The notes under the pieces: generated by a model
Seen by the model: the letters and a program-made list of their open reading frames with translations, nothing else
Told to the model about the DNA's origin: nothing
Database searches by the model: none
Part shown: positions 2,480 through 64,000 of the stretch, in pieces
Layout of the letters: every line of letters begins with the position of its first letter
Position numbering within the stretch: the first letter of the stretch is position 1
Made by a program: the position numbers and the translations under genes
From: Mytilus edulis
Lineage: Eukaryota
Length of the DNA: 64,000 bases
NCBI RefSeq assembly: GCF_963676685.1
Contig: NC_092349.1
Coordinates: 33,604,001-33,668,000, forward strand
Direction: 5' to 3'

Positions 2480-5400
2480 TCATAATTGAAATTATTTCCC
2501 TATCGACTCAATATGTAGCTGTGAAGTGACATATTTTGAATGGCATGTGCAGTCACATGTGCCTTCCGGAGAGGCAATGTGTCCTTAATATCACATTTAT
2601 TTAGCTCCGCCGAATGTTGCAAGAGTTCTCTAACAACATCATCATGTCCTTATTGACTTGCTAGAAAAAGCAAAGTACATCCATCATTATCAAAGAGGTC
2701 AGTGTGAACATCATTAAACTTAAGGAGTACTTTTACAACCTCAACTTTATTTTTGTAACTTGCTATCTGTAGCGGTGGTGTGCTATCCTTACAACATTTA
2801 TTGAAATCTGCCTTATGATGAAGAAGTTCTCTCACAACATTAACATGGCCTTGATGACTTGCTATCCACAGAGGTGATACACAGCTATCATCACAGCTAT
2901 TTACAGCTACTGAATGTTGTAACAATTCTTTAACAACGGGTACATGTCCTGCTTGACTTGCTATCCATAGAGGTGACACGCCTCTATCATTACATTTGTT
3001 GATTTCAATAGAATGTTGTTACAATTCTTTAACAATATTAACATGTCCTCTATCACTGGCTATCCACAGAGGTGACACATCTTTATCGTTACACTTATTT
3101 ACGTCTGCCGAATGTAGTAACAGTTCTACTACAACGAGTACATGTTCTGCCTGACTTGCAATCCACAGAGGTGACACGCCTCAATCATCACATTTGTTGA
3201 CTTCGATATTTTTCAACAACATTAACATGTCCTCGCTCACTCGCTATCCACAGAGGTGACATATCTTAACCGTTACACTTGTTTACGTCTGCCGAATGAA
3301 GTAACAGTTCTACTATAACAAGTACATGTCCTGCCTGAATTGCAATGCACAGAGATGACACGCCCCAATCATCACATTTGTTGACTTCAATTGAATATTG
3401 TAACTCTAGTTCTGTAACACGCTTAACATGTCCCAGCTCACCGGCTATCCACAGTGGTGACAAATCTTTATCGTTACACTTGTTTACGTCTGCTGAGTGT
3501 AATTAGTAGGTCTTTACTATCATTCACATGTTCTTGCTGATTTAGTATCCATAGCGGTGATATGTCCTTGTCAGTATATTTGTGTGCTTCAGCCGAAAGG
3601 TTTAAAATATTATTTACTTTTGCTGAATTTCGTGTAAATTGTTTGACATCTTTACCATACCCTTTCCGTAGAGACGATGTGTCCTCAGTATCACATTTAT
3701 TCACTATGGATCTGCAGGATCCGGAGGAATGATGTAATAGTTTCTTAATAACAATAACATGTCCCTGATAACTAGCCAAATAAAGTGAGGAACGTCCACT
3801 ATTATCAGAGAGATAATATCAACATCAACACACGAAAGAAGAACATTGACAACTTCAATCTGTAGAGGTGAAATACCAGCATCACAACATTTATTGAGGT
3901 CGGATGAATGCTTTAATAGGGTTTTGACAACATCATCATGTCCTTGGTGACTTGCTGTCCACAAAGGTGACACACCTTTATCATAATGTTTATTTACTTC
4001 TGCTGAATGTTGTAGTAGTTCATTCACAATATTGAGATTTTCTTCCTGACTTGCTATCCACAAAGGTGAAATACCTTTGTCTTTACAGTTATTTACTTTT
4101 GCATAGTCACTTAACAGTTCTTTAACAACATGAAAATGTCCTTCCTGACTTGCCAAATATAATGGGGATCCTGTTTTAACACCCACGAGATCAAAATCAA
4201 CATCATCACATTGCAGCAGTACACTTTCAATATCAATTCTGTTTTTATAGCAAGATATCTGCATATGGGATATTTAATCTTTCACACTTGTATTAACCTC
4301 TGCTGAATGCTGTTATAGTTCTTTGACAATATTCACACGTCCTTCCTGACTCGCTTTCCACAGAGATGACACACCGTTATTTTTACAGTTTTTCGAATCT
4401 GCTGAGTTTTGCAACAATTCTGTAACCTCATCTTCATGTCCGTTATTGCTTGCTCTCCATAAAGGGATGCACCTTTATTACTACAGATACTTATCTCTGC
4501 CGTTTGTTGTAACAATTCCTGAACAACACCAATATGTCCTTGCTGACATGCCAAATAAAGCGAGGAACGTCCTTCCTTATCACTAAGATCAATAATGATA
4601 TCTTGACATAGAAAAAGTAGTTTAACAACCTTAATCATATTATTATAACTAGCAATCTGAAGCGGTGAGATGCCATCATCACAACATTTGTTGACCTGTG
4701 CAAAATGACGTAGGAGTTCTGTCACGGTATTAAAATGTCCTTGGCGGCTAGCTATCCACAAAGGCGACATACCTTTATTGCTACATAAATTAACGTTTGC
4801 TGAATGCTGTAATAATTCTTTAACTACACGAACGTTTCCTTCTTGACTTGCTATCCACAGAGATGAAAGACCCTTTTTTTACATGTATTTACCTTTGCAA
4901 AATGTTGTAACAGTATTTTAACATCAAAGTGACCTTCCTGACTTGCCAAATATAAGGAGGATCCTCCATTATCGTCACAAAGATTTACATCAACATCAAC
5001 GCATTGCAGAAGTACACATACAACGTCAATATTGTTTTTATAACAAGCAATCTGTAGTGGTGAGAATCCGTCTTTTACATATTGATATACCTTTGTTGAA
5101 TGTTGTAGTAGTTCTTTGACAGTATCAGCATGTCCTTCCTGACTCGCTATCCACAGAGGGGTTGCACCTTTATTGTTACAGATATTGAATTCTGTTGAAC
5201 ATGTTGAATTATGAAATAGTTCTTTAACACCATTAACATGTCCTTGGTAACTTGCTATCCACAGAAGTGACATGCCATTATATTTATATCTTTTTATATC
5301 TGCTGAGTATTGTGACAATTCTGTAGAAGTGTGGTGTCTTCTTTTCTACATTTATTGATATGTATTGCATGTCTTTTATGACATTGCATTTTGACAAACC

Positions 5401-6790
5401 ACTTCGTTGTCGATACCGATTGTTGCATCTCTTGACTCTGACTGCTGTAACAATTCTTTAACAACATTTACCTGTCCTTGTTGGTTTGCCAATAACAAAT
5501 GGAAATAACCGTCTTTTCCTAAATAGTTTATGTCACTGTTCTTACTAATTATCCATTTAACGATGTCAACAGAACCCATAAAACAACTGCTTCGAAGAGC
5601 TCTATGTTCATTTTTGATATCTTTCTTACAGGCAAGTTTAATTTGCTTTGACCAATCAAGTTTGTTTAAATTATTTATAAACCTTTCTGTAAATGCAGGA
5701 TAACTCATGTTTCTGTTTAAAAATGTATTGTCTACGAAACCATTCCACAGTCTTTCAGAAGCATATCTATCGACATGTGCATCGGGTATTGGGATGGCGA
5801 ACCCTATATCTTCGTCCATGTTGGTTGCGCTCCTCCATGGAAATCTTTCTCGTATGAAGCTTGTTGTTGCATTATCAATGAAGATCTGCAGCATCCTTTC
5901 ACCGAAGTACTTAGCCACAAAATCAAGCAACTTATCATGGATAACTTTGTATACACTATCTTCAATGACTAAATATGTACCTTCAAGTGCTCTAAGTGAT
6001 TCCTTTAAGATATTAACATCTGTTTCTTGTTTCAGTCCACATTCTCGCAATACATCTCCTATTCCTACCTCTATCTCCATATCGTTTTTGGACAAATCTT
6101 GTACTGTTATTGCGTTGTTTAACAACCCACAAAGAGCCAAACTACAATATTCATCTTACCGTTATCTATATTTGTATACATCCTATCAAGTTCATCTTTG
6201 AAAATATCAAACGGATTTCTACTAAAAGAGCTTATGCTTACATGCTTCTGAGGGTTCTGTTTATAATATAAACCTCTTAAAAATGGTAAAACTTGTATCT
6301 TTCTGACAACTCATTGTCTTTGTCAGAATTTTGCTTAAAGTAAACTTGAACTAAATCAAACTTTTCAGTAGCATTAAGTCAATCAAGGCAAAACCTATTT
6401 AGAATGGAAATGCTGTTACAATTTTCATCTTTAAAAATTTCAAGTTTACATGAACACACAATTTTACAACATTTATCTTTAAGCATATACGTGATGTGAC
6501 CAAGCCACTGTTCCCAGTCGTTTATCATCTGTTGATCAATCGTATACCGCCCATAAACGTCATCAAAACAAATAATGTTTTTCTGTCCTGTTTATACCAT
6601 TGTCTTATATTTACAGGATGACTGCAGGGAATTATTATATACCCCTTTTTAATCAATTTTAGTGCAACATGTCTTAAAAGAAAAAAAATTCCTGAGCCAG
6701 AAGTTCCTACGATTGCTACATAACTTTCGAATAGAACGTTTTGGATTACTTGTTTCTCTGCCTCTGTACAAACAAATTGTATTTAAATAG
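2480..6790 (-). pseudogene. STAND NTPase (nSTAND3-like) plus long ankyrin-repeat array, pseudogenised
   Basis: Minus strand from ~6790 reads FVCTEAEKQVIQNVLFESYVAIV-GTSGSGIF (Walker A position, 6684-6707)...KTLFVFDD (Walker B, DD at 6559-6564). Helical region follows (ORF 5376-6140, YKVIHDKLLD), then many ankyrin repeats (SPLWIASQEGH...VVKELL) broken by stops and frameshifts. Confidence 0.82.
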
Positions 6791-9594: not shown

Positions 9595-9696
9595 TCTCGC
9601 TACATTGAAGACCTGTTGGTGACCTTCTGCTGTTGTTTTTTATTTGGTCGGGTTGTTGTCTCTTTGACACATTCCCCATTTCCATTCTCAATTTTA
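9595..9696 (+). repeat. 5' partial pseudo-LTR of the Naiad element
   Basis: Matches 13591-13692 (tctcgctacattgaagacc...ccattctcaatttta). Confidence 0.92.
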
Positions 9697-10051
9697 TTTT
9701 TTACAGAGTTTGTCTTTAGTGCCGTGTGGAGGCAGTAGAGTGCCTCCCCGTGCTTCAGGTTTATGCTCTTATAATATACTAGATTATGGAGTGTGTGTCC
9801 GAGCGAGAACTGCTTTAGTTCATTACTTTAGGAATATTTATCAAAAAGCAGTATTTCAATATTCAGCCCCATTCAACTATTTAGTCAGCCATCAGTCCTA
9901 CCCTGATATACACTATCTTTTTCGGGTAATTTATACTGATAGCGTTTGACATTTTCAGCTAACAAATTTATCAATTTTACATAACTTAAATTATTGTATG
10001 CTGGTTCATATTCTTTGCTCCTTTATTATGTAATTCACTAACAAAACAATT

Positions 10052-13000
10052 ATGAAGCTTAGAAATGGAAAAATACTAAATACTAAACTTGTTCAAAGGG
10101 TATCTACACGTCTCAATCTTCAAAATCGGTTATCTAAAAATACTACCATCGCTAACATTTTTAACAATAAAAATCGTGGCTACCCTTCTATCGATAAGTG
10201 TCATGCCAAAAAATGACTTACATGTCCCCGTCTTTCCACCAACAATACGGTAAGGTCCACGTTTAATGGTCGCACATTTTCTTTAAATTTTGAAACTGAT
10301 ATAACTTGAAAAACAAACAGTATTATTTATTTACTCACATGAAACAAACCGGGGTGTGGTATTCAGTACGTAGGAGAAACTGGACGATATTTATCTAAAC
10401 GCACTCAAGAACATCTGTATCGTTTTAAAAGACCAAATAAATTCAAAAGTATCATTTACCAACACCTTAAGAAGCACAACCATCCTTTTAAATATTTAGC
10501 AGTTCAACCTTTAGAAGTAGTAAATAAGCAGCCTGGTGAATCGCATTCAAAGTTTGTACGATCACGGAAAATAATTGAATTAAATTGGATTAAAAAATTA
10601 CAGACAGTTTACCCTCTCGGTCTAAATGATAATATCATGGGAATTGGTAATATATCTAGAACCAATACCGTTAACATTTTGGATATAGTTTCTAAAACTG
10701 TTCGTAAAAACCGTTCTCACGGTCGTAGAACAAATCGCAATCAAAGAAAATTTCGGGCCAATCATACCAATATTTCGAACCTAATTTCTATTTCAAAAAA
10801 CAACGGCAGACATTATCTGTTAACAAAACTCTGTTCGTTACCGGTTAATAAGTTAAATAAAATTTTGGAGGATTGCAACACAATTTCATATAGCAGTCCT
10901 AAGTATGAAATTGTTCAAATTATTATGGCATATTGTTATTCTAAATTATTTCCCAAAATTGATCGCCCTGAAGATCATAAAAAGCATTTTATTAAAATTA
11001 AGTATGTCAATAAAGGCTTTGATTTTGTAAATATTGCCGGTATATTTAACGATCATTCTGTTAAAGAACAAATTTCTGGATATTTTGACAATACTGAGCT
11101 ACCTCTTATTTGTTATATTTACAAGAAATCTACCCGGAAATTTGTGTTTAATTATAGTCAATTGTGTAAAGATGTTAATATCAGTGAAAATACACCTACT
11201 TCATGTAATTGCAGTAATTCCGAATATATTTATGGACCCATTTCCCATGTTATAACAGGAGATCTTAACATCGTTCAAGACCGAGAGTTAAAATCATTCC
11301 TCAGTAAAGGACCTAAATATCGTCCCCCGTCAATTATTAATTGGAATGAGTGTCGTAATATCATCCACGACTCACTCCATACTTACTGTATAAAATGGAT
11401 AAAACGGGAAAAAGCTGACAAAAAATCTTTGGACTCTTTTTTTAATTCAGTAATGAAGATAGTTGATATACGTATTCAACATTTTAAAGAACATTTTACT
11501 ATTAACAATAACCAAAATAAACCTATTTCTCGTATCAAACATAAACTAAAAGAATTAGCCAAGGAATTTGTTTTTGTCCCGGCCGATAAAGCTGCTAATA
11601 ACATTATTATTGTTTGACGTAAATTTTACATTGAGGTTCTGAAAAAGGAAATCACCAATTCACCAACATTCCAACTGACTCCATTTTCAGAAAACGAAAT
11701 CTGTAACAAACATAAACTTTTAGCCACCGCTTTAAAAGCAGAGCCAAATACAATGAAAGTCCCAACAATGTATTGGCTTCCGAAGCTACACAAAACCCCT
11801 TACAAATATAGATTTATTTCGTCTTCAAGCCATTGTTCAACTACTAAATTGTCTATTCTTCTTACCAGCACACTTGGTACAATTAAAAACCTTATAATAA
11901 ATTGTTCAAATAAGGCCTTCGAAAATAGTGGAATAAATTACTTTTGGAGTGTCAAGAACTCGTTGGAAGTTTCTTGATAAATTGCATGCTTATATTGGTG
12001 ATTTTGAATCTATTCAAAGTTTTGATTTTTCTACCCTGTATACCACATTGCCTCACATTCTCATTAAGAAAAAAATCACACACCTAATTAAATGGGCATT
12101 CAAAAAATCAGAATGTGAATATATATGTTCAAACTCTTTTAGGTCATTTTTTAGTAGCAATAAACAAAAAAAATATGTTAATTGGACATGCTTTGATACT
12201 ATATATGCCCTTGAATTTTTACTAGATAACATTTTTGTTCGCTTTGGGGATTCCGTATATCGTCAGATTATCGGAATTCCAATGGGGACTAACTGTGCAC
12301 CACTTATTGCGGACCTCTTTTTGTATTGTTATGAGTTACAATTTATGACAAAAATAAGCAAAGATCCATCAAAACAACATCTGATAAACAAATTTAATAA
12401 TACTTTTAGATATTTGGATGATATTTTGGCTCTCAATAATGACGACTTCAGTATGTATATTAATGAAATTTATCCTGCTGAACTTACTTTAAATAAAGCT
12501 AATATTAACAATGACCACTGCCCTTTCCTCGATCTTGATATCTATATCACTAACGGAAAGCTGAATACTAAAATTTATGATAAAAGGGATGATTTTTCAT
12601 TTCCTATCGTTAATTACCCGTTTTTAGATGGTGACGTTCCGTTGTCACCATCTTACGGTGTTTATATATCTCAACTTGTACGATTCGCTCGTGTATGTAA
12701 CAATGTTTTAGATTTTAACGAGAGAAATTTATGTATTACTGAAAAATTATTACACCAGGGTTTTCGATATCACAAACTAGTCAAAACATTTACTAAATTT
12801 TATCATCGGTATAAAGACATCATTCGTAAATATAGCTCAACATGCAGACTTCTTATACGTTCAGGTATTTCACATCCAATTTTTTATGGAAATATTCTTT
12901 ATAAAGCACAAAGGTGTCAGTATTCACCTCAGAAACTTAAAAAAACCTTTGAATAGACTTATTAAGAAGGGATATAATTACGATACTGTTGTCAAGTCAT

Positions 13001-13062
13001 TAAAGATTGCATATTTTGGCGTTAATATTGAGTCACTGATAAGGTCTTTGCGTCGGAACTAA
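10052..13062 (+). CDS. Naiad EN-RT polyprotein, predicted selenoprotein (~1002 aa, 4 Sec), with two +1 frameshifts in this copy
   Basis: ATG at 10052 (MKLRNGK) is in frame with ORFs 10637 and 11753. The only in-frame stops before ~11970 are TGA at 10214, 10307, 10340 and 11615, all at Cys positions. Extra T at ~11970 and extra A at ~12940. Corrected end is ...PLNRLIKKGYNYDTVVKSLKIAYFGVNIESLIRSLRRN* (TAA 13060-13062). Confidence 0.85.
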
Positions 13063-13111
13063 ACACATTTATTCTAAAAACAGTTGTTGGCATGACACGG
13101 GTTATGTTCTT

Positions 13112-13180
13112 CTCATATATGTTATGATGGTATGATACTAAACCCCTAACGGGAAGGATTGTGCCTGATGTACATATGAT
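13112..13180 (+). promoter_or_regulatory. SECIS element (type II form) in the Naiad 3' UTR
   Basis: ATGAT (13124-28), GGTATGATACT, AAA (13140-42), CCCC taac GGG a, AGGATTGTGCC, TGAT (13166-69). Gives the AUGA/GA core, an 11-bp helix II with one mismatch, unpaired apical As and a mini-helix, flanked by a catat/atatg lower helix. Confidence 0.85.
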
Positions 13181-13590
13181 GAAATCATAATCTTTCAGTC
13201 AGATTAATTGAAGTCTGGAGCTGGCATGTCAGTTAACTGCTAGTAGTCTGTTGTTATTTATGTATTATTGTCATTTTGTTTATTTTCTTTGGTTACATCT
13301 TCTGACATCAGACTCGGACTTCTCTTGAACTGAATTTTAATGTACGTATTGTTATGCGTTTACTTTTCTACATTGGTTAGAGGTATAGGGGGAGGGTTGA
13401 GATCTCACAAACATGTTTAACCCCGCCGCATTTTTGCGCCTGTCCCAAGTCAGGAGCCTCTGGCCTTTGTTAGTCTTGTATTATTTTAATTTTAGTGTAC
13501 AATTTGGAAATTAGTATGGCGTTCATTATCACTGAACTAGTATATATTTGTTTAGGGGCCAGCTGAAGGACGCCTCCGGGTGCGGGAATT

Positions 13591-13692
13591 TCTCGCTACA
13601 TTGAAGACCTGTTGGTGACCTTCTGCTGTTGTTTTTTATTTGGTCGGGTTGTTGTCTCTTTGACACATTCCCCATTTCCATTCTCAATTTTA
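13591..13692 (+). repeat. 3' terminal pseudo-LTR segment of the Naiad element
   Basis: Direct repeat of 9595-9696; solo relatives at 21061-21335 and 43500-43666. Confidence 0.9.
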
Positions 13693-14849: not shown

Positions 14850-17800
14850 GCTAGGCCCAGTGTTTCTGCCGTGTTTGGGGGGAAAATCCCTGAGTCAGGC
14901 TTCATCAGTGGTCGACACAATAAGTTGTATATTGGCGTGTTATTTATGTTTTTTGTTTTATTTCGTATATTATATTGGACCATACACCGGTTGTCTTTGG
15001 ATAACATATTAGTGGATTATGGTTTTTTTTTTGTGAGCTCAGTATCATATTGTGTTGTGTTGTGAAAAGACGAGCAGACTATACCCGCTAATGCTTTGAT
15101 AGTAGTTCTTGTTAATTTGTATGTCTTCTATAAGCTATAATAGGATGATGATTAAATATATTCACACATTCAGGGTTTAATGAAATCAGCTTCCAGTGTT
15201 TTGTAGTTATATTTTTTAGTTTCTGTATAGATGGGTTGTGAATTTTGTTAACATAACTAGTGGTTGTTCCCGTTTCGTTGGGCGTTTTATAAGCAGGTTT
15301 TCCCTTTCTATATTTTGTGTTCTTACAAAATTCGTTGATTTAAGATATTTTATATCCTCGGTTGAGGAGACGTCTTTTTAAAAGCTTCAGACTGTTTTTT
15401 AAGTTCAGTTCTGCTACTGGTGTTTCTGATGTATCTCAATACTTCACCCTTGATAAATCCGTTGAAAACACTTTTCGGGTGTGAGCTGTATCTGTTTAGA
15501 TATTGAGAGGTTTCAGTTGGTTTAGAATATTGTTTCATTACGGGAAAATTCGTAGGTGAACTTCAAGTGCGGGTGTGCAGTATTAGCTATTGTAAGTAGT
15601 TCGTGTATTTCCTCTATAGGTCCGGAATATATAATCCAGCAGTCATCCCTAAATCTGGAAGTCATTATCATTTTGTTTCTGTGCTGAAAGCGTTGTAAAA
15701 CGTTTTCAAGAATGACAAACATTCTAAGGTCGGCCAATTCAGCAGCTGCCGATCCGCCCATAGGCACGCCAAAAGTTTCACGGTAAAGTTTATTGTTAAA
15801 AAAAAATTCATTGTTCTCTAGAATAAGCCTTAATAGGCGAAGTATACTGTTCTTTGGTGGAATTTTTATTTCATACTCGCTTGGATCAATATTGGTCAGT
15901 GCCGCGTTAGTAGTTTTTAGTATTTCATTAAATGTAAAGCAAGTGTACATATTTTTTGCATCGAATGTTACTAGATAGCAGTCTCTTTGGGGTTTAATAT
16001 TTTCAATCTAATTAATAAAACTTGACGTATCTTTTTATACATGTATATTTTTTTTTAACAAGTGGAACAACAAAATAATCGATATAGTGCCCAATACTGT
16101 GTAAGGGCGTTCCACAAATTTTAAATTTCTCGTCTAGCTGTTTCATTTCTCTCCATTTCTGATAGTATATTTTGAGTAAGTTTATGTATTTTAGACAACA
16201 AAAAGAATTTTCCTACTTCAGTTGTATTTATGTTTTCTTTCAAATATTTGAATGTTATATTGTCAATATAATTATCATTATGACGGTCCACTACGTTATT
16301 AAAGACCTTATTGTTTTTCTAATAATGTTATTATTTTTCTTTAGATTCCGATTAGCCGACAATTCCTCGGCAGATATATTTCTGGTGTGTTTGTTTATTT
16401 TCATTCTACTAAGTTCTATTTTTGTTGAGAATATGTAATTTTCAATTGCTGGACAAGAATCCATCGGTTTATATCCCGAATTTATGTAAAAAGGGTGTCT
16501 CTTGTAAATTCTACCATCATTAAAGAGATATCGACATCTAAGTTTTCTTGAGAATTCGTCAAAGTCCTTCATAACGTTTCTTATGGCATTTTTGTTCGAA
16601 GGGTTAATAATGAACTTTACACCTTTTGCAAGTAATAAGGTTTCGTGATTCGTCAAATTATATCCCGATAAATTTTTCACAAATAATTCGGCATTTTTTA
16701 CTAACTTGGTACTATGTAATTTACTCCTTTATTGTTGTTGTTTTCTACAAGTTTATGTCATACTTTTTGTTTTTAATAGTTCGTTTAAAGCGTCTGGCCA
16801 TGTTGATTGTAAAGTAGTGAACTTATTTTTGTACTCGTGCTATTTTAACCTCATTTATCGTATTACATAGCAATTACCTGCAGATAATGTTAGGATCAGA
16901 TTTGTGATAAAAATAGAATGACTTACAGAAGGTTAATTAGGTGAGTAGTTATGAATGGAATATCTGACCTCCTAAGATCTTCACATAGCGTAAATAATTG
17001 TAGTTTGTGGTTTTGCGTAATATAAAAAAAATATAAATTTTACATTTTCTGCACATCCCTGAATAATAGATAATAATACAATTGATATCGTTGAATTTGT
17101 TACATTGTATAGTGTATAGATATTTGATTGTTGTAATCGTTATTGAAATGTTGTGTGTTTATCTGTCTTAACTGGTATACTCTGCATTATATTTAATGGG
17201 TGCAGGGTAGAGAGATATTATATCGTTATCGTTTCGTTTTAGGAGTAATACATAAGGTTTAATTATAATATGTACAGTGATAGTTGATATGGCCAATATT
17301 AATATAATTTTCTTCATAAATTGACTAACCAGTCGTAGTAAATTCATATAATAGAAATAAATACCAACATCTATCATAAACAAGTTTAATGTTTTAATCT
17401 GGAGGTAGACTTACATTTGTATAGTGATATATAGTCCAAAAACTAAGTAGGAACAAATAGCGTGATATATTCAAATGTACAGTTTATCTTCTTCTATTTA
17501 GTTTGCCGGCAGATTCGTGCCTGTTGCAGTAAGGGCGGTTTAGATCCCTATTAAAGTTGGTGGTGTTTCCCGATGTTCAGTTCATTCTGTTCACACTTGT
17601 TCTGTATTCTTCCGTCCAATTGTTTTTAAGTTTAAGTAGTTCATCATTAAACTCGGTGATAGCTTTGTTACCACTTTCAGAACCCGAGTTTAGTTCTTTG
17701 TATAGATCCAGTTTAAGTTTATCAGCATCGACGGTACATTTGGTAGAAAACTCCTTGCAGGATGCAGTTTATTTTTTCCATAATACACTGGTTAGATTCT

Positions 17801-18260
17801 TGACGTATAGCCTTTAATTTTCCCACGAAGAAGTCTTTCACTTCATTTGATCCATAAAATGGTCTAAAGTCAATGTTTGTATTAAAAATATGGGTGTTCT
17901 AGTTGATTCTTTTCTAATTGTATATTCTAGTGTAAGAATGTGATGTCTTTTCTCAAGGATGGTGTTAATCGCTTTGATGGTTGCTCCGACTGTTGGTGTT
18001 GCATGTTTAATTGGAGATATCAAGTCGATGTCGAAAAATTTCACTGAGTTGTCATTCGTAGTGGTATCCATACTGAGGGATTCTAGCAAAGGCATGTCCC
18101 TCTAGGTTAGATGTTCTAATTTAAAGTTCATGTCAGTTCCATGTAAAGATCCATGTTTAATTTTTCCAAATTTTCTACTGCTACTGTTGTTTCTTTGTCC
18201 GCTTGATGTTTTTCACACAAATAAATGTTGCCGTCGTATTCGGTCGTTGTTAAGATAATT
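14850..18260 (-). mobile_element. Decayed Penelope-like retroelement with an upstream ORF and an RT ORF, no GIY-YIG seen; boundaries approximate
   Basis: RT ORF relics from ATG ~16801: KNLSGYNLTNHETLLLAKGVKFI, GVPMGGSAAAELADL, SRFRDD, HPHLKFT, YSKPTETSQYLNRYSSHP...IKGEVLRY, ending PIIAYRR near 15090. A separate degraded helical ORF lies at ~17490-18250. Confidence 0.75.
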
Positions 18261-20530: not shown

Positions 20531-21060
20531 TGATAAAACTACTAAAACAAAATTGTCCACTCAGAATTAAATATATGCAAAGAATGATAATCAAGGTATG
20601 AAGACTCAAAGTATTCTGTTTTCTGAAATATATCTTTAGACAAATGTTTACGCCAACGCGCAGCCGGATTGTATTGCGTACACTTAGATTTTTAATTAAT
20701 TTAAAGCGAGACAAAGGGTTAATACCTGGGCTTTCAGAAGAAAATATTCATTGAATTATACAGTGTTCAAATTATGTTGTAAAATATGTTAATTTAATAT
20801 ATAGAAGATATTACTCATTCGAGTACTAGTAATCCATGGAATTTCATACAAAATTAAAAAAAAATCAATTTAGTATCAGGAATAAAGGAATATTAAACAA
20901 AACATGTACTAGTAATATCAATTTTAATAAATCAAAAGTTGTAATTGTATAATGGTATGGAGCCATATATAAATTGATATTGTATTGTAAAACTATACTT
21001 ATCATTCTATTTTGGTAGAGTTCTCGGTAGATGATATTTCCTAGAACTATTGTAATTTTT

Positions 21061-21335
21061 TTGCGCCTGTCCCAAGTCAGGAGCCTCTGGCCTTTGTTAG
21101 TCTTGTATTATTTTTAATTTTAGTTTCTTGTGTACAATTTGGAGTTTAGTATGGCGTTCATTATCACTGAACTAGTATATATAATTGTTTAGGGGCCAGT
21201 TGAAGGACGCCTCCGGCGTGCTGAAATTTCTCGCTGCATTGGAGACCTGTTGGTGAGTGACCTTCTGCTGTTGTCTTCTCTATGGTCGGGTTGTTGTCTC
21301 TTTGACACATACCTCATTTCCGTTATCAATTTTAA
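21061..21335 (+). repeat. Solo 3' end (pseudo-LTR) of the same Naiad family as 9595-13692
   Basis: Aligns by eye to 13434-13692 (gcgcctgtcccaagtcaggagcctctggcc...ggggccag.tgaaggacgcctccgg...gttgttgtctctttgacaca). Confidence 0.88.
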
Positions 21336-32527: not shown

Positions 32528-33315
32528 AATTGATGCTATGGAACGTACGCGCAAGCGCAGACGGCATATGCCAGTTTTTAAATACATGTTTTAACGTTGT
32601 TTTTTGTCAGTTTCATTAGAATGGAGATAACAATATTGTATTTTAAGCTCCGACGGCATCAATTGTGGATTTGATGGTCGCAAATAATCGTTTACTGTCT
32701 CCGCTTACGCGTCACCAGTTAACTGAATTTACGACCATCAAATCCCCAATTGATGCCGTCGGAGCTTAAAATACAATACAGTTATCTCCTAATTGATGCT
32801 ATGAAACGTACGCGCAAGCGCAGACGGCATATGCCACTTTTTAAATACATGTTTTAACGTTGTTTTCTGTCAGTTTCATTAGAATGGAGATAACAATATT
32901 GTATTTTAAGCTCCGACGGCATCAATTGTGGATTTGAAGGTCACAAATACTCGTTTACTGTCTCCGCTAACGCGTTGCCAGTAAACTGAATTTGCGACCA
33001 TCAAATCCCCAATTGATGCCGTCAGAGCTTAAATACAATACAGTTATCTCCTAATTGATGCTATGAAGCGTACGCGCAAGCGCAGACGGCATATGCCACT
33101 TTTTAAATACATGTTTTAACGTTGTTTTCTGTCAGTTTCATTAGAATGGAGATAACAATATTGTATTATAAGCTCCGACGGCATCAATTGTGGATTTGAT
33201 GGTCGCAAATACACGTTTACTGTCTCCGCTAACGCGTCGCCAGTAAACTGAATTTGCGCCAATCAAATCCACAATTGATGCCATCGGAGCTTAAAATACA
33301 ATACAGTTATCTCCT
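32528..33315. repeat. Three tandem ~263-bp units, each containing a long inverted repeat
   Basis: Units start at 32528, 32791 and 33053. Each has ~60-bp arms ggagataac...gctccgacggcatcaattg.ggatttgatggtcgcaaat / attt.cgaccatcaaatcc.caattgatgccgtcggagc...gttatctcc. Confidence 0.92.
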
Positions 33316-33426
33316 AAATGGTTACAATGTTAAACAAAATTTTACCAAGTACATGTGTTTGAATGAAAAACAGTAATAATTTTAAGTTATTTAAAATTGA
33401 ATGCCAAAATATCCAGATTTAAAGGA

Positions 33427-41380: not shown

Positions 41381-43499
41381 TTAACATGATATCCATGAAA
41401 TATTTCCTATAGAAATCATTGGTCTTATGAAATGGATCTCAAACAGACTTGCTTGATTTAAGATCTAAACATGAATGAAAAAGTGTTTGGTTGTTTAAAA
41501 ACAAAATAATAAGTATTTGAAACAAGATTGGAACAAATTGTCTGTACCAAACGAAAGTCCCCCCTTGTTAGCCACAAGATGAGTGGTGAGTTCAAAAGAG
41601 ACACATGGTCACATTTTAAAAGTGCCTCAAGTCACCCATTTTAGTAAAGCTTTGACTAGAAGTTTTTTGCACTTAGTAAATACAGCTGTTTCTTAAACCC
41701 CGTCTCTTTTGGGTAGATCTGTAAAATTCATAGATAATTTTATTTGTTGACATTATGGTTCCCAGATATGAACTCTATGTTTTATAGAGACATGATATCA
41801 GACATAACTTGGGACTGTTACCAGCATAACAATATACTATATTGCTGTGAAAATGAGTTCTGAAGTAGGAAAAAAGTAAAGGAAAATTCAAAACAGAAAA
41901 TCCAGTAACAAACCACAAAATTTAAAGCTCATACGCATCAAACATGCAAAACGGGTTACTTAGTGCAACCTACACTGACATTTCGTCAAATAGAAAACTC
42001 TCTAAAACACGTTTTTCTCACAACAGTACTTGTTTATCAGAAATATAGCCTTATAGAAATCACTGTATAAACTCTCTATATAAGTTTTCTGTTAAATAAT
42101 TTTAAAATAATAAAATGATAGCATGTACAAGTTAATCATCTGTTTTATGACAATATGGGGTAGACATTTTTCTCAGTTTTTTGCACCTAGGTCCTCGCAT
42201 TTACTAAATTATATCTCTGTAATTTTTGAAGCCCCTTATAACTTGCTCTTTGGTATGAGCGTACGCTCTGTGTTGAAAACCGCACCTTGACCTATAATGT
42301 TTTAGTTTTATAATTTCACAATCGTAGAAATGGAAGCCATTTTAGGGATGACGCGCTGCCAATTTTGCTCTTGAAAACCGATAAATTTATCCGCATAACA
42401 CCATTGCGATCCTTATATGTCAGTTGTATTTTAAAAGACAAATGTATCTACTAGCTAATGAGCATTAGTTAATGATCTTGTCTGCATTGATTCAACTTAG
42501 AATTATTGTCTAATCGGTTGTCATGTGGAATTTTTGAAAATTCATAAATATTTAAAAGAATTCTAATTAAATATTTCGTGGAAGAGCAGACTAGATTTCT
42601 TTAGTGGTTGAACACTATAAACCTTAGTGTTCACCCAAAAAACATTATGAATTTTCAAATATATCTTTTTTCATCATCCAACTTGAAAGACTGTCGTCAA
42701 GTACTTTTATTAAAAAAAATAGCTATTCGAACACTCTGTTTTTATGATTCATTAGATAGGTATTTCATTTGACCCATATAGTTCATCTTTTAGTACCGTG
42801 ATTTTTTAGGTTATAAAGTCAACCTGTAGCTTTGATATATAAAAATGATAGAATCTGAAGCGAGATCATGTATTAAATATTCTTGCTTTGTACGTTTTCA
42901 AGACAAAATATTCAACTGAAACACGCCCTGACGTAAAATGTGCACTTGATTTTCTCTTTTCGATACAATTGTTACCCATTTTTTAGAATTTTTTCTTGAG
43001 TCACATAATGGAAGGGCAGACACGAAAATAACGAGACAACGCTCAACTATAGCAAAATAACGTAGAAGCTAAATAAAATATGTGTCATACCAACTAAAAC
43101 AATGAAACAAAGACACAATGCATAGTCAGCTATGAAATGTCTCGAAATGAGAAATGTAAGACAATTCAAACAAGAAAAATGAGGGCTGATTTGTGTTCAA
43201 ATCAATAAACGGAAAAAGATGTGATATACATCGACAAATAACAACCATTAAATGAAGACAGACATCCAACGCGAGAAATTCTAAAATCAATGAAATGAAA
43301 CATTTATTCCTATACATGTTTCCTCTGACAACTTCACAACAATGCATTGGAAAAAAACACCTTTTTATTTCATGATTGTAGCACAAAGTAGTTTTAATTT
43401 GTCATTTTCTTCACTTTTTAAAAAATGACTCGGTCAACATTTTTACATCAAAATAAACTTATAAGAATAAACATTCAACCTTAAAACATTTATTCATTA

Positions 43500-43666
43500 T
43501 CACTTAACTAGTATATACATTTGTTTAAGGGCCAGCTGAAGGACGCCTTCGGGTGCGAGAATTTCTCGATGCATTGGAGACCTGTTGGTGACCTTCTGCT
43601 GTTGTCTGTTCTATGGTCGGGTTGTTGTCTCTTTGACACATTCCCAATTTTCATTCTCAATTTTAT
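43500..43666 (+). repeat. Solo Naiad 3' pseudo-LTR fragment in the C1qDC intron
   Basis: Aligns to 13530-13692. Confidence 0.85.
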
Positions 43667-55910: not shown

Positions 55911-55954
55911 GCGTCACTGATGAGTCTTTTGTAGACGAAACGCGCGTCTGGCGT
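55911..55954 (+). ncRNA. Minimal type I hammerhead ribozyme (Penelope-associated form)
   Basis: Stem I GCGTCA/TGGCGT, core CTGATGA (55917-23), stem II GTCT-tttgt-AGAC, GAAAC, palindromic loop GCGC, GTC cleavage triplet (55946-48). Confidence 0.85.
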
Positions 55955-61900: not shown

Positions 61901-62059
61901 CGAAGGCCACCAATGTCATTCTTTATCACAGCTAGAAAATTCAGCACTATCAAATCGGTCTTCAGCTGGCTTTGAACAAAAATCTGAACTATATATAGCT
62001 TGTACAGTGAAAATAAACGTCATAATAAATTCCAAAACATATAATTGAACTAAAATTTC

Positions 62060-62130
62060 AAATGCCTTACAAGACCAGAGGCTCCTGAATTGGAACAGGC
62101 GCAAAAAAGCTGCTGGGGTTAACATATATT
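62060..62130 (-). repeat. Short inverted Naiad 3' UTR fragment
   Basis: Reverse complement gttaaccccagcagcttttttgcgcctgttccaattcaggagcctctgg matches 13416-13463. Confidence 0.7.
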
Positions 62131-62329
62131 TGGGATCTGAACCTTTTAACATTTACCTGTAGTAGCTATTTGAGATTAAACAAACACACAACAATACTCA
62201 CAGTAAAAATAACTTTAGATTAAATCCGAGTCTGAGGTCAGAAAAGATAATAATAATGATATTATAAACAAACCTTAAAAAGGTAAATATGCTAGCTATA
62301 CTTACTGGAGGTTTGAAGAGATAATTGAA

Positions 62330-63778
62330 GCTGTTTATTTTTTCCTTGGTAATATTTATATACGTTTCGGCATCAAAGTTTATCGACAGGTTGTAGGTAT
62401 CCCTATGGGCACTTATTGCGCCGCTTTAATAGCAGACTTGTTTTTTAATGTTACGAATCCCAGTTTATGACTTAACTCAGTAAAGACCCGTAGAAATTGC
62501 ATTTAATTGATAAATTCAACAACACTTACCGTTTTCTTGATTATATTTTTTCGTTAAATAATCAAGAATTTTCTCAATATACTGCTGAAATTTACCCCAA
62601 TGAAACTCCATACAAAAAAATACGACAAAAGGGACGATTTTTCGTTTCCTATTGTTAATTTTCAAATTTAAGATAGTTACGTTCGCTTTGCCCGTGCCTG
62701 TTGTGACGTTCATGATTTTAACGAACGTAATCTATGTATTACTGGTAAATTATCAAACCAGGAATATCGTTGCCATAAATTACTTAAAACATTTACTTAA
62801 TTTTTCTATAGATATAAAGATTTGGTTTTGAAGTTTAGTTGTACCTGTAGAAATCTTATTTCAAACGGGATAGCACATCCTCATTTTTACGGAAATGTTG
62901 TTAACCGTGTCCGAAAATTTAGAAATGATCTTTGTAAACTTATCGCTCCTTTTGATAAACTTATTCTAAAAAGGTTACCAATTCAACACTGTAATAAGAT
63001 CATTGAATATTGTTTTTATTGGTATAAATATTGATTTAGTTATCAGTAAATTAAAATCAAACTAAATATTACTAGTATGTTATATACATATACACATTCA
63101 TGGATCTACAATCTATCTGTATATACCTGTATCTTGGCATTGCACAAGGTCATGTTTTTCTTTGACTGTTTATGACGTCTTAAACTTAATCCATTGTATG
63201 TTGGATGTGTACGGATTAATAATTGTGTCTTAGATGCGTGATTTTTTTGTAAGTTGTGAGTGACTTTGAACCAGCTGTCAGTTAACTGCGAGTACTCTCA
63301 TATATGTTCCTAGTGTCCTTTTGTTGTTGGGATGTACAAGTACCAGGCCACGTACACTTGTATTTTTGTCAATCTGATAAGTTAAGCCTTTTTCAAATGA
63401 TTTTTATAGATAGTTCTTATGTTGAACTGTTATAGCACTGTCCAAGGTTAGGGGAGGGTTGGGATCCCGCTGACGTGTTTTACCCCGCCCCATTATGCCT
63501 GTCCTAGGTAAGGAGCCTGTAATTGAATGGATGTCGTTTTTTTATATGTTACATATTTGTTTTTCGTTCAATTGTTTTTATATGAATAAGGCCGTTAGTT
63601 TTCTCGTTTGAATTGTTTTACATTGTCATTTCGGGGCCTTTTATAGCTGACTATGCGGTATGGGCTTTGCTCATTGTTGAAGGCCGTACGGTGACCTATT
63701 GTTATTAATTGCTGTGTCATTTTGGTGTCTTTTTGAGAGTTGCCTCATTGGCAATCATACCACATCTTTTTTATACTT
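62330..63778 (+). mobile_element. 5'-truncated, decayed Naiad element (RT C-terminal half plus 3' UTR), a different family from 9595-13692
   Basis: VYRQVVGIPMGTYCAALIADLF, KYDKRDDF, DFNERNLCITGKL, GIAHPHFYGN and a C-terminus (...NTVIRSLNIVFIGINIDLVISKLKSN*) collinear with the intact copy; 3' UTR motifs are also collinear. Confidence 0.88.
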
Positions 63779-64000
63779 ATCAGCCGGGACAAATGGAAAT
63801 TCCTTGGCGAGTTCTTTTGGCTAATGTTTGATCCGAAAAATAGGGCTAATATGTTCTTTGTAATGAGTAATATGTTCTTTAAAATGTTGTATACGTAATT
63901 CGACTATGATTATAACAGCATTGAAAAAAGAATTATGGTATTTCTTATCAGCTTTTTCTCATTTTATACGTTTCGAGCATTAAGTCGTGGATAATGTTAC

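Follow-up and report, generated by a model that had tools for sequence, protein, structure and literature searches.

Selenoprotein-encoding retroelements have been described among the Naiads, which are Penelope-like elements. Craig et al. (2021; PMC8557442) reported four such Naiads, two from clams and two from spiders, with three or four UGAs and a 3′ SECIS, and the available text of that paper gives partial tandems as typical of Naiads and a CX2-5CxxC finger, a KR-rich block, CxC, GxKF/Y and DKA as their diagnostic motifs. The same text already raises, as an open possibility, the donation of SECIS elements by 5′-truncated copies. In Schistosoma retrotransposons, twister variants with a relaxed P1 are active, according to the available part of PMC8501958. 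Selenoprotein Naiads having been published for clams and spiders, the mussel element analyzed here, which lies in a 64-kb stretch of DNA (hereafter the window), is most likely a further family of such Naiads.

The Naiad element and its in-frame TGAs

The first-pass annotation had placed the hairpin studied here inside a mobile element, and this proved correct, with other copies aligning across the region to a common 3′ end at 13692. As placed by its motifs, its homologues and a by-eye comparison with published references, the element (family A) is a Naiad Penelope-like retroelement, and its main parts are as follows.

9595-13692, + strand: Naiad (Penelope-like retroelement) with an N-terminal GIY-YIG nuclease, pseudo-LTR included
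9595..9696, + strand: pseudo-LTR, a 102-bp partial tandem copy of the element's own 3′ end, 100% identical to 13591-13692
9697..13692, + strand: full-length Naiad body, ~4.0 kb; other copies match at 97-99% over most of the span and have the same 3′ end, 13692
10052..13062, + strand: single ORF, GIY-YIG nuclease then reverse transcriptase (RT), 1002 codons in intact copies
13060..13062, + strand: true stop TAA, 61 nt before the SECIS core and 51 nt before the hairpin stem

Naiad-type traits include the pseudo-LTR or partial tandem, 5′ truncation and a body size within the 3.4-4.4 kb range. From its ATG at 10052, the ORF runs through a CX2-5CxxC finger, the GIY-YIG core, a KR block, CxC, GPKY, DKA and RT motifs; in the intact copy L061, the nuclease and RT motifs are GIQYVG at 103, GIPMG at 741 and YLDD at 787, and the Naiad motifs are CHAKKULTC at 50, the KR block at 216-240, CNC at 385, GPKY at 420 and DKA at 512. 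Pfam returned no match at E 0.01 on the intact protein, and the domains were therefore assigned from motifs and homologues. E values fall below 1e-40 for 47 of 48 database homologues, many of which are labelled GIY-YIG (PF01541) or RVT_1 (PF00078). Rfam scans gave no hammerhead ribozyme match in 9595-13692, in agreement with Naiads being without a canonical hammerhead.

The copy in the window is broken by two extra bases, one near 11970, missing from 20/20 other copies, and one near 12940, missing from all 19 other copies that cover the position. To judge by these frameshifts, this copy is dead, so its own SECIS is most likely idle.

The ORF contains four in-frame TGAs, listed below with the number of Cys among the rows having a residue in that column of an alignment with 47 homologues, and with the number of other long copies keeping the TGA. 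Those 20 long copies were selected as top matches to a stretch that itself contains three of the TGAs, which biases the 20/20 counts upward for these three sites and has less effect on the fourth, which lies 1.2 kb away.

10214..10216, + strand: TGA at residue 55, second Cys site of the CX2-5CxxC finger, predicted selenocysteine; Cys in 34/35 homologues, TGA in 20/20 copies
10307..10309, + strand: TGA at residue 86, Cys site before the GIY-YIG motif, predicted selenocysteine; Cys in 40/41, TGA in 20/20 copies
10340..10342, + strand: TGA at residue 97, first Cys of the CCHH motif, predicted selenocysteine; Cys in 42/42, TGA in 20/20 copies
11615..11617, + strand: TGA at residue 522, eight residues past DKA (DKA+8), predicted selenocysteine; Cys in 43/45, TGA in 19/20 copies

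Only 11 of 921 well-filled columns in the alignment with the 47 homologues have a Cys majority, and all four TGA sites are among them. All four TGAs are kept together in 19/20 of the other long copies, and three are listed in the great majority of 150 protein-level matches to the nuclease region. When UGA is taken as a residue, three of the 20 copies (L061, L069 and L073) have one 1002-codon frame to the TAA with exactly those four TGAs; when TGA is taken as a stop, their longest frame is at most 435 codons. Compared by eye, both clam references, Naiad_Mmer and Naiad_Scon, have U at the sites matching residues 86 and 97, and residue 522 is the DKA+8 UGA site named in the available text of PMC8557442. 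The last UGA lies 1,507 nt upstream of the SECIS core.

Five tRNA-Sec matches in the genome score over the cut-off, and ARAGORN confirmed one of them, with a TCA anticodon. Four true tRNA-Sec matches are clustered on C7, at 74.8-75.4 Mb. A tRNA-like tandem array with a period of ~895 bp and dozens of units was also seen (G000:C10:14401393-14442259, and C945); its units score 45.9 bits against tRNA-Sec, under the cut-off.

Several other features of the window were recorded. Further Naiad fragments lie at 21058-21334 (+), 43493-43665 (+), 61991-62243 (-) and 63777-63973 (-), and three of the fragments are 3′-end pieces too short for a SECIS. The remnant of another reverse-transcriptase element lies at 15522-18101 (-; RVT_1 E 5e-5, GIPMG-like and DD motifs), an ankyrin-repeat gene or pseudogene at ~2585-6782 (-; 99-nt periodicity, several frame breaks) and three tandem units of ~263 bp, each with a long inverted repeat, at 32528-33320. 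A hammerhead type I match at 55911-55954 (+) scores 32.5 bits against a cut-off of 34, and short repeats resembling it lie near 1785-1850, 21658 and 24780.

The SECIS hairpin and its counterpart in a sister family

Every structural feature claimed for the hairpin by the first-pass annotation was found in the sequence, at 13114-13178 on the + strand.

13114..13178, + strand: SECIS element in the type II arrangement, with AUGA/UGA core, helix II of 11 bp, AAA bulge and apical mini-stem; Rfam RF00031, compensatory changes relative to family B
13114-13121, + strand: lower helix, pairing with 13170-13178
13124-13127, + strand: AUGA, 5′ side of the SECIS core, followed by U13128
13129-13139, + strand: helix II 5′ arm, GGUAUGAUACU
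13140-13142, + strand: AAA bulge
13143-13153, + strand: apical CCCC-UAAC-GGG
13155-13165, + strand: helix II 3′ arm, AGGAUUGUGCC
13166-13169, + strand: UGAU, 3′ side of the core (UGA 13166-13168)

Ten of the 11 positions of helix II are paired, three of them as G-U. With Rfam SECIS_1 (RF00031), the hairpin gave a full-length model alignment of 30.9 bits, with an E value of 8.5e-4 when 1.3 kb was searched and 0.042 when the 64-kb window was searched. The gathering threshold is 35 bits, and the first-pass annotation had held that a sub-threshold covariance score would refute its reading; the window copy does fall below, whereas a sister copy, L111, with two hairpin positions different, scores above it at 41.4 bits. 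That the window copy and all family B matches (see below) stay under the cut-off calls for caution in the SECIS reading. Other Rfam matches near the hairpin (snoRNAs and bacterial sRNAs, E 0.4-9) were set aside as chance.

We considered whether the hairpin might be a chance fold in AT-rich sequence, as a modest folding z-score of -2.14 (5/200 shuffles were equally stable) and the three G-U pairs of helix II would allow. A descriptor of the SECIS layout, however, matched once in the 64-kb window, at the hairpin, against 0.03 matches per shuffled window at >=10 pairs (30 shuffles, two-letter blocks), and the hairpin stands directly after the stop of a TGA-containing ORF. The fold is also kept in a diverged sister family, whose compensatory changes already refute chance, and we give this explanation a negligible probability.

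The sister family, family B, has ~60% protein identity to family A, and Rfam SECIS matches were found at the homologous place in 8/12 of its loci, at 22.4-33.1 bits. A MAFFT alignment of the SECIS copies set the 3′ arms of A and B out of register, so the copies were instead lined up at the two core motifs for pair counting. Anchored in this way, the bases of helix II differ between A and B at 5/11 positions on the 5′ arm and 8/11 on the 3′ arm, and 4/4 two-sided changes still pair (G-C to U-A, A-U to U-G, G-U to U-A and U-A to C-G), while pairing an A arm with a B arm gives only 6/11 pairs. These are the compensatory changes between families that the first-pass annotation had said to look for, although the covariation comprises essentially two lineages (A with its close subfamily C, and B) and so represents few independent events. 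In 16 copies of families A, C and B, chosen by their SECIS-like 5′ arm, the AUGA and UGA core flanks helix II in 16/16, each copy has 8-11 helix II pairs, and 147/176 helix II cells (84%) are paired, against 63-100 (36-57%) when the arms are slid by 1-3 nt. The mini-stem above the AA bulge is CCC/GGG in family A, CCCC/GGGG in L149 and UCCA/UGGA in family B. We assign the predicted SECIS to type II by its layout, that is, by this apical mini-stem. The window also holds a decayed family B copy (62282-63775, +) with a damaged SECIS (AUGA at ~63172) and a twister-like motif at ~63451-63518.

Family B is, on its codons, likewise a predicted selenoprotein element. Its TGAs occur at site 55 in 5/5 aligned loci, at site 86 in 4/5 and at site 97 in 5/5. 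At the first Cys of CxC, a TGA is present in 15/17 aligned loci of the 20 examined, and at residue 522 there is Cys in 18/20. With a TGA at DKA+8 in A and usually at CxC in B, the fourth predicted Sec site thus differs between the sister families. Two family B copies, L189 (= L133) and L190 (= L143), have a TGA at DKA+8, L189 at CxC too; they have SECIS variants in common and may represent a subfamily with five Sec codons. Two database proteins, P0001 and P0002 (75-79% identical), start just past CxC and have Cys at DKA+8; such starts are expected if Naiads of other species have a UGA at CxC that gene callers took as a stop. A search with part of the homologue P0002 returned mostly family A copies and no clear further family.

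Probable use of the SECIS by the element, and its spread through the genome

The hairpin lies in the 3′ UTR of an ORF with in-frame UGAs at Cys-homologous sites. Judged from sequence, it is very probably a genuine SECIS whose most likely use is in making the retrotransposon's own selenoprotein. Located in the Naiad 3′ UTR, it would let intact copies read the four UGAs as selenocysteine and so produce one nuclease-RT protein. By extension from established eukaryotic Sec decoding, host SBP2 would bind the AUGA/UGA core and recruit eEFSec with Sec-tRNA. Without recoding, translation would end at residue 55, ahead of both enzymes, which would make transposition reliant on the host's selenium pathway. 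Copying that is target-primed and begins at the 3′ end would preserve the tail in truncated copies, and the hairpin would thereby be scattered as a by-product.

The TGAs might instead be read through leakily by near-cognate tRNAs (as Cys, Trp or Arg), or be mutations of dead copies, with the hairpin put to some other use such as RNA stability or template recognition. Such an account would fit a hairpin score under the Rfam cut-off and the broken state of most copies. Decay, however, is hard to square with four TGAs fixed at conserved Cys columns and a SECIS core that covaries in two families, and four serial leaky events would yield almost no protein, yet the family is young and abundant. We therefore consider this account very unlikely and retain service to the element's own protein, in whose ORF the four conserved TGAs at cysteine sites would explain why the hairpin is there.

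The first-pass annotation further proposed that 5′-truncated copies could scatter the hairpin into host 3′ UTRs and so permit UGA read-through in them. The premise of this idea held: a 46-nt SECIS core has 5,320 occurrences in the genome within two mismatches (a reversed control gave 0), the intact SECIS layout is present in 13/30 position-ordered 3′-end copies, and truncated copies keep the SECIS. Among 40 exact-match copies sampled near the start of contig C1 (<1% of the 5,320), 38 are 5′-truncated, without the nuclease end, and in 10 the start is no more than 225 nt from the core; five of these 10 start at 13100-13104, ~10-14 nt ahead of the stem. Use in host 3′ UTRs found no such backing, a recognisable terminal host exon upstream being present in 0/40 sampled copies, a count taken from open frames rather than annotation, in which short last exons are missed. 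Thus, the type II SECIS inside a mobile element was borne out, compensatory changes included, while scattering into host 3′ UTRs does not appear to be the hairpin's primary role, given the element's own ORF with four conserved TGAs.

Truncated sense copies in host 3′ UTRs could still give host mRNAs UGA recoding, and thereby new or extended selenoproteins, on top of the element's own use of the SECIS. The abundance of near-exact cores, the intact layouts and the starts close to the core all speak for this, but among the 79 sense frames that reach 70 codons in the 2.5 kb ahead of the 40 copies, just one is a credible host exon. This is AAA_12, an internal helicase-gene exon (L220:3196-3364) ~800 nt upstream of a sense Naiad copy, and because it has splice signals on both sides, that Naiad copy is likely intronic. 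The copy in the window, for its part, lies upstream of, and opposite to, the ankyrin gene. Pfam matches in the L215 flanks (Tipalpha, Pneumo_M2, YpjP and CTD9) and in L230 (CYYR1) are probably spurious; all but one were under the cut-off, and those at L215 were without a passing stretch. A genome-wide Rfam SECIS search gave one match, a Naiad copy, but as only 130 of 47,381 candidates were scored, this search is uninformative on SECIS elements of the host.

RNA reads from four runs bear on the same question. They cover the hairpin on both strands, climb steeply toward the 3′ end and mostly carry the alleles of other copies, which suggests that transcription is mostly passive. One run had five to eight times as many nuclease-region reads on one strand as on the other, as expected of sense full-length transcripts provided that the library was stranded in the usual way; on the same assumption, read depth in the four runs showed no clear strand signal over the hairpin, and this lack of enrichment on the presumed sense strand counts against host recoding. 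A junction between foreign sequence and position 13068, with the same flank each time, was covered by 20, 15, 26 and 7 reads in the four runs (X21-X24) and marks a transcribed truncated copy that starts 5 nt past the stop codon. Its recurrence in 4/4 runs makes it the best lead for donation, although its flank has 0 matches in this assembly at <=2 mismatches and the junction is thus missing from it. At the other end of the element (9699/13692), ~340-440 reads per run (X21-X23) continue into one dominant flank, which suggests a single highly expressed transcript holding a Naiad tail.

Weighing these points, we regard host recoding through truncated copies as unlikely. That Naiads amount to a genome-wide SECIS delivery, with some host mRNA recoding UGA by means of a transposon-donated SECIS, seems to us similarly improbable; if true, a donated host SECIS would mark the first selenoprotein born from a mobile element. 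More than 5,000 SECIS copies in one genome make SECIS acquisition by genes directly testable.

The twister-like tail motif and comparison with known elements

Downstream of the SECIS, the tail contains a second RNA motif.

13381..13459, + strand: twister-like RNA motif in permuted order, without canonical P1; candidate self-cleaving ribozyme with a predicted cut at 13418/13419

The Rfam twister-P1 match is weak (13.3 bits, E 8.3), but the parts of a twister are present in permuted order: UAA, P2, P4 with the GUCCCAAG loop, GAGGG and two pseudoknot pairings. Across six twister pairings, 93% of cells are paired against 33-49% when slid, with one compensatory (two-sided) pair only, and the core has 10,746 exact matches in the genome. 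A P1 stem is lacking, as the bases that follow GAGGG do not match those preceding UAA, and the motif was not counted as a twister member. At the place of P1 there are palindromes, GAGAUCUC in family A (followed by AAACAUGUUU) and GGGAUCCC in family B (L113:2053-2194), which differ by a two-sided change and could form pairs in trans, joining two RNA copies, instead of folding one copy on itself. The four RNA runs listed no accumulation of read ends at 13418; their libraries are ill suited to showing one. On these predictions, we put the odds that the motif cleaves as roughly even. If it does, cutting would free unit-length RNA from tandem copies with the SECIS at its 3′ end; it would also sever a host mRNA containing the sense tail from its poly(A) tail and tend to destroy it, and so would work against donation.

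For a mussel Sec-Naiad, or a twister in Naiads, PMC8557442 alone was directly relevant in a search that left subscription literature and transposable-element databases mostly outside; the available main text of bioRxiv 10.64898/2026.07.22.740005 contains none of the words 'twister', 'SECIS' and 'Mytilus'. Compared with the Schistosoma Perere-3 twister variants (Liu et al. 2021; available part of PMC8501958) and with RF03160, the tail motif is alike in having the core words beside a retroelement and a relaxed or missing P1. It differs in lying in the 3′ tail of a Penelope-like element, in its permuted order, in scoring 13.3-20.4 bits against a cut-off of 67.2 and in being a prediction. Cleavage by the motif, if it occurs, would provide Naiads with a ribozyme, which they had been considered to lack.

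Relative to Rfam RF00031 (SECIS_1), the hairpin has the same core, helix II, AAA and mini-stem at a score of 30.9 bits against 35, but this SECIS is borne by a retrotransposon in more than 5,000 copies. The element is like the clam Naiads Naiad_Scon and Naiad_Mmer, as far as the available text of PMC8557442 describes them, in its N-terminal GIY-YIG and RT, its pseudo-LTR and its size of ~4 kb, in having UGAs at the Cys before GIY-YIG, at the first CCHH Cys and at DKA+8, and in a SECIS just past the stop. By eye, and against references of ~400 residues, its nuclease is much closer to these clam Naiads than to the Mytilus Naiads of that paper; the mytilid Naiads there come without a UGA note in the available text, whereas the element here is from a mussel. 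Unlike the clam Naiads, it has an extra UGA at the second Cys of CX2-5CxxC, which in the same text only the spider Naiad_Sdum has. Its SECIS has an apical mini-stem, and hence the type II layout, whereas all four published ones are called type I there, and its stem starts 51 nt past the stop as against 1-21 nt in the published Naiads. The predicted Sec of family B at CxC is at a site that the available text leaves unnamed.

Elements that encode Sec in this way would be mis-annotated as dead. The present analysis adds a young, very abundant mussel lineage to the four published families of selenoprotein-encoding retrotransposons, and contributes comparative support beyond the available text of PMC8557442, namely, SECIS compensation between families and a predicted Sec site shifted between DKA+8 and CxC.
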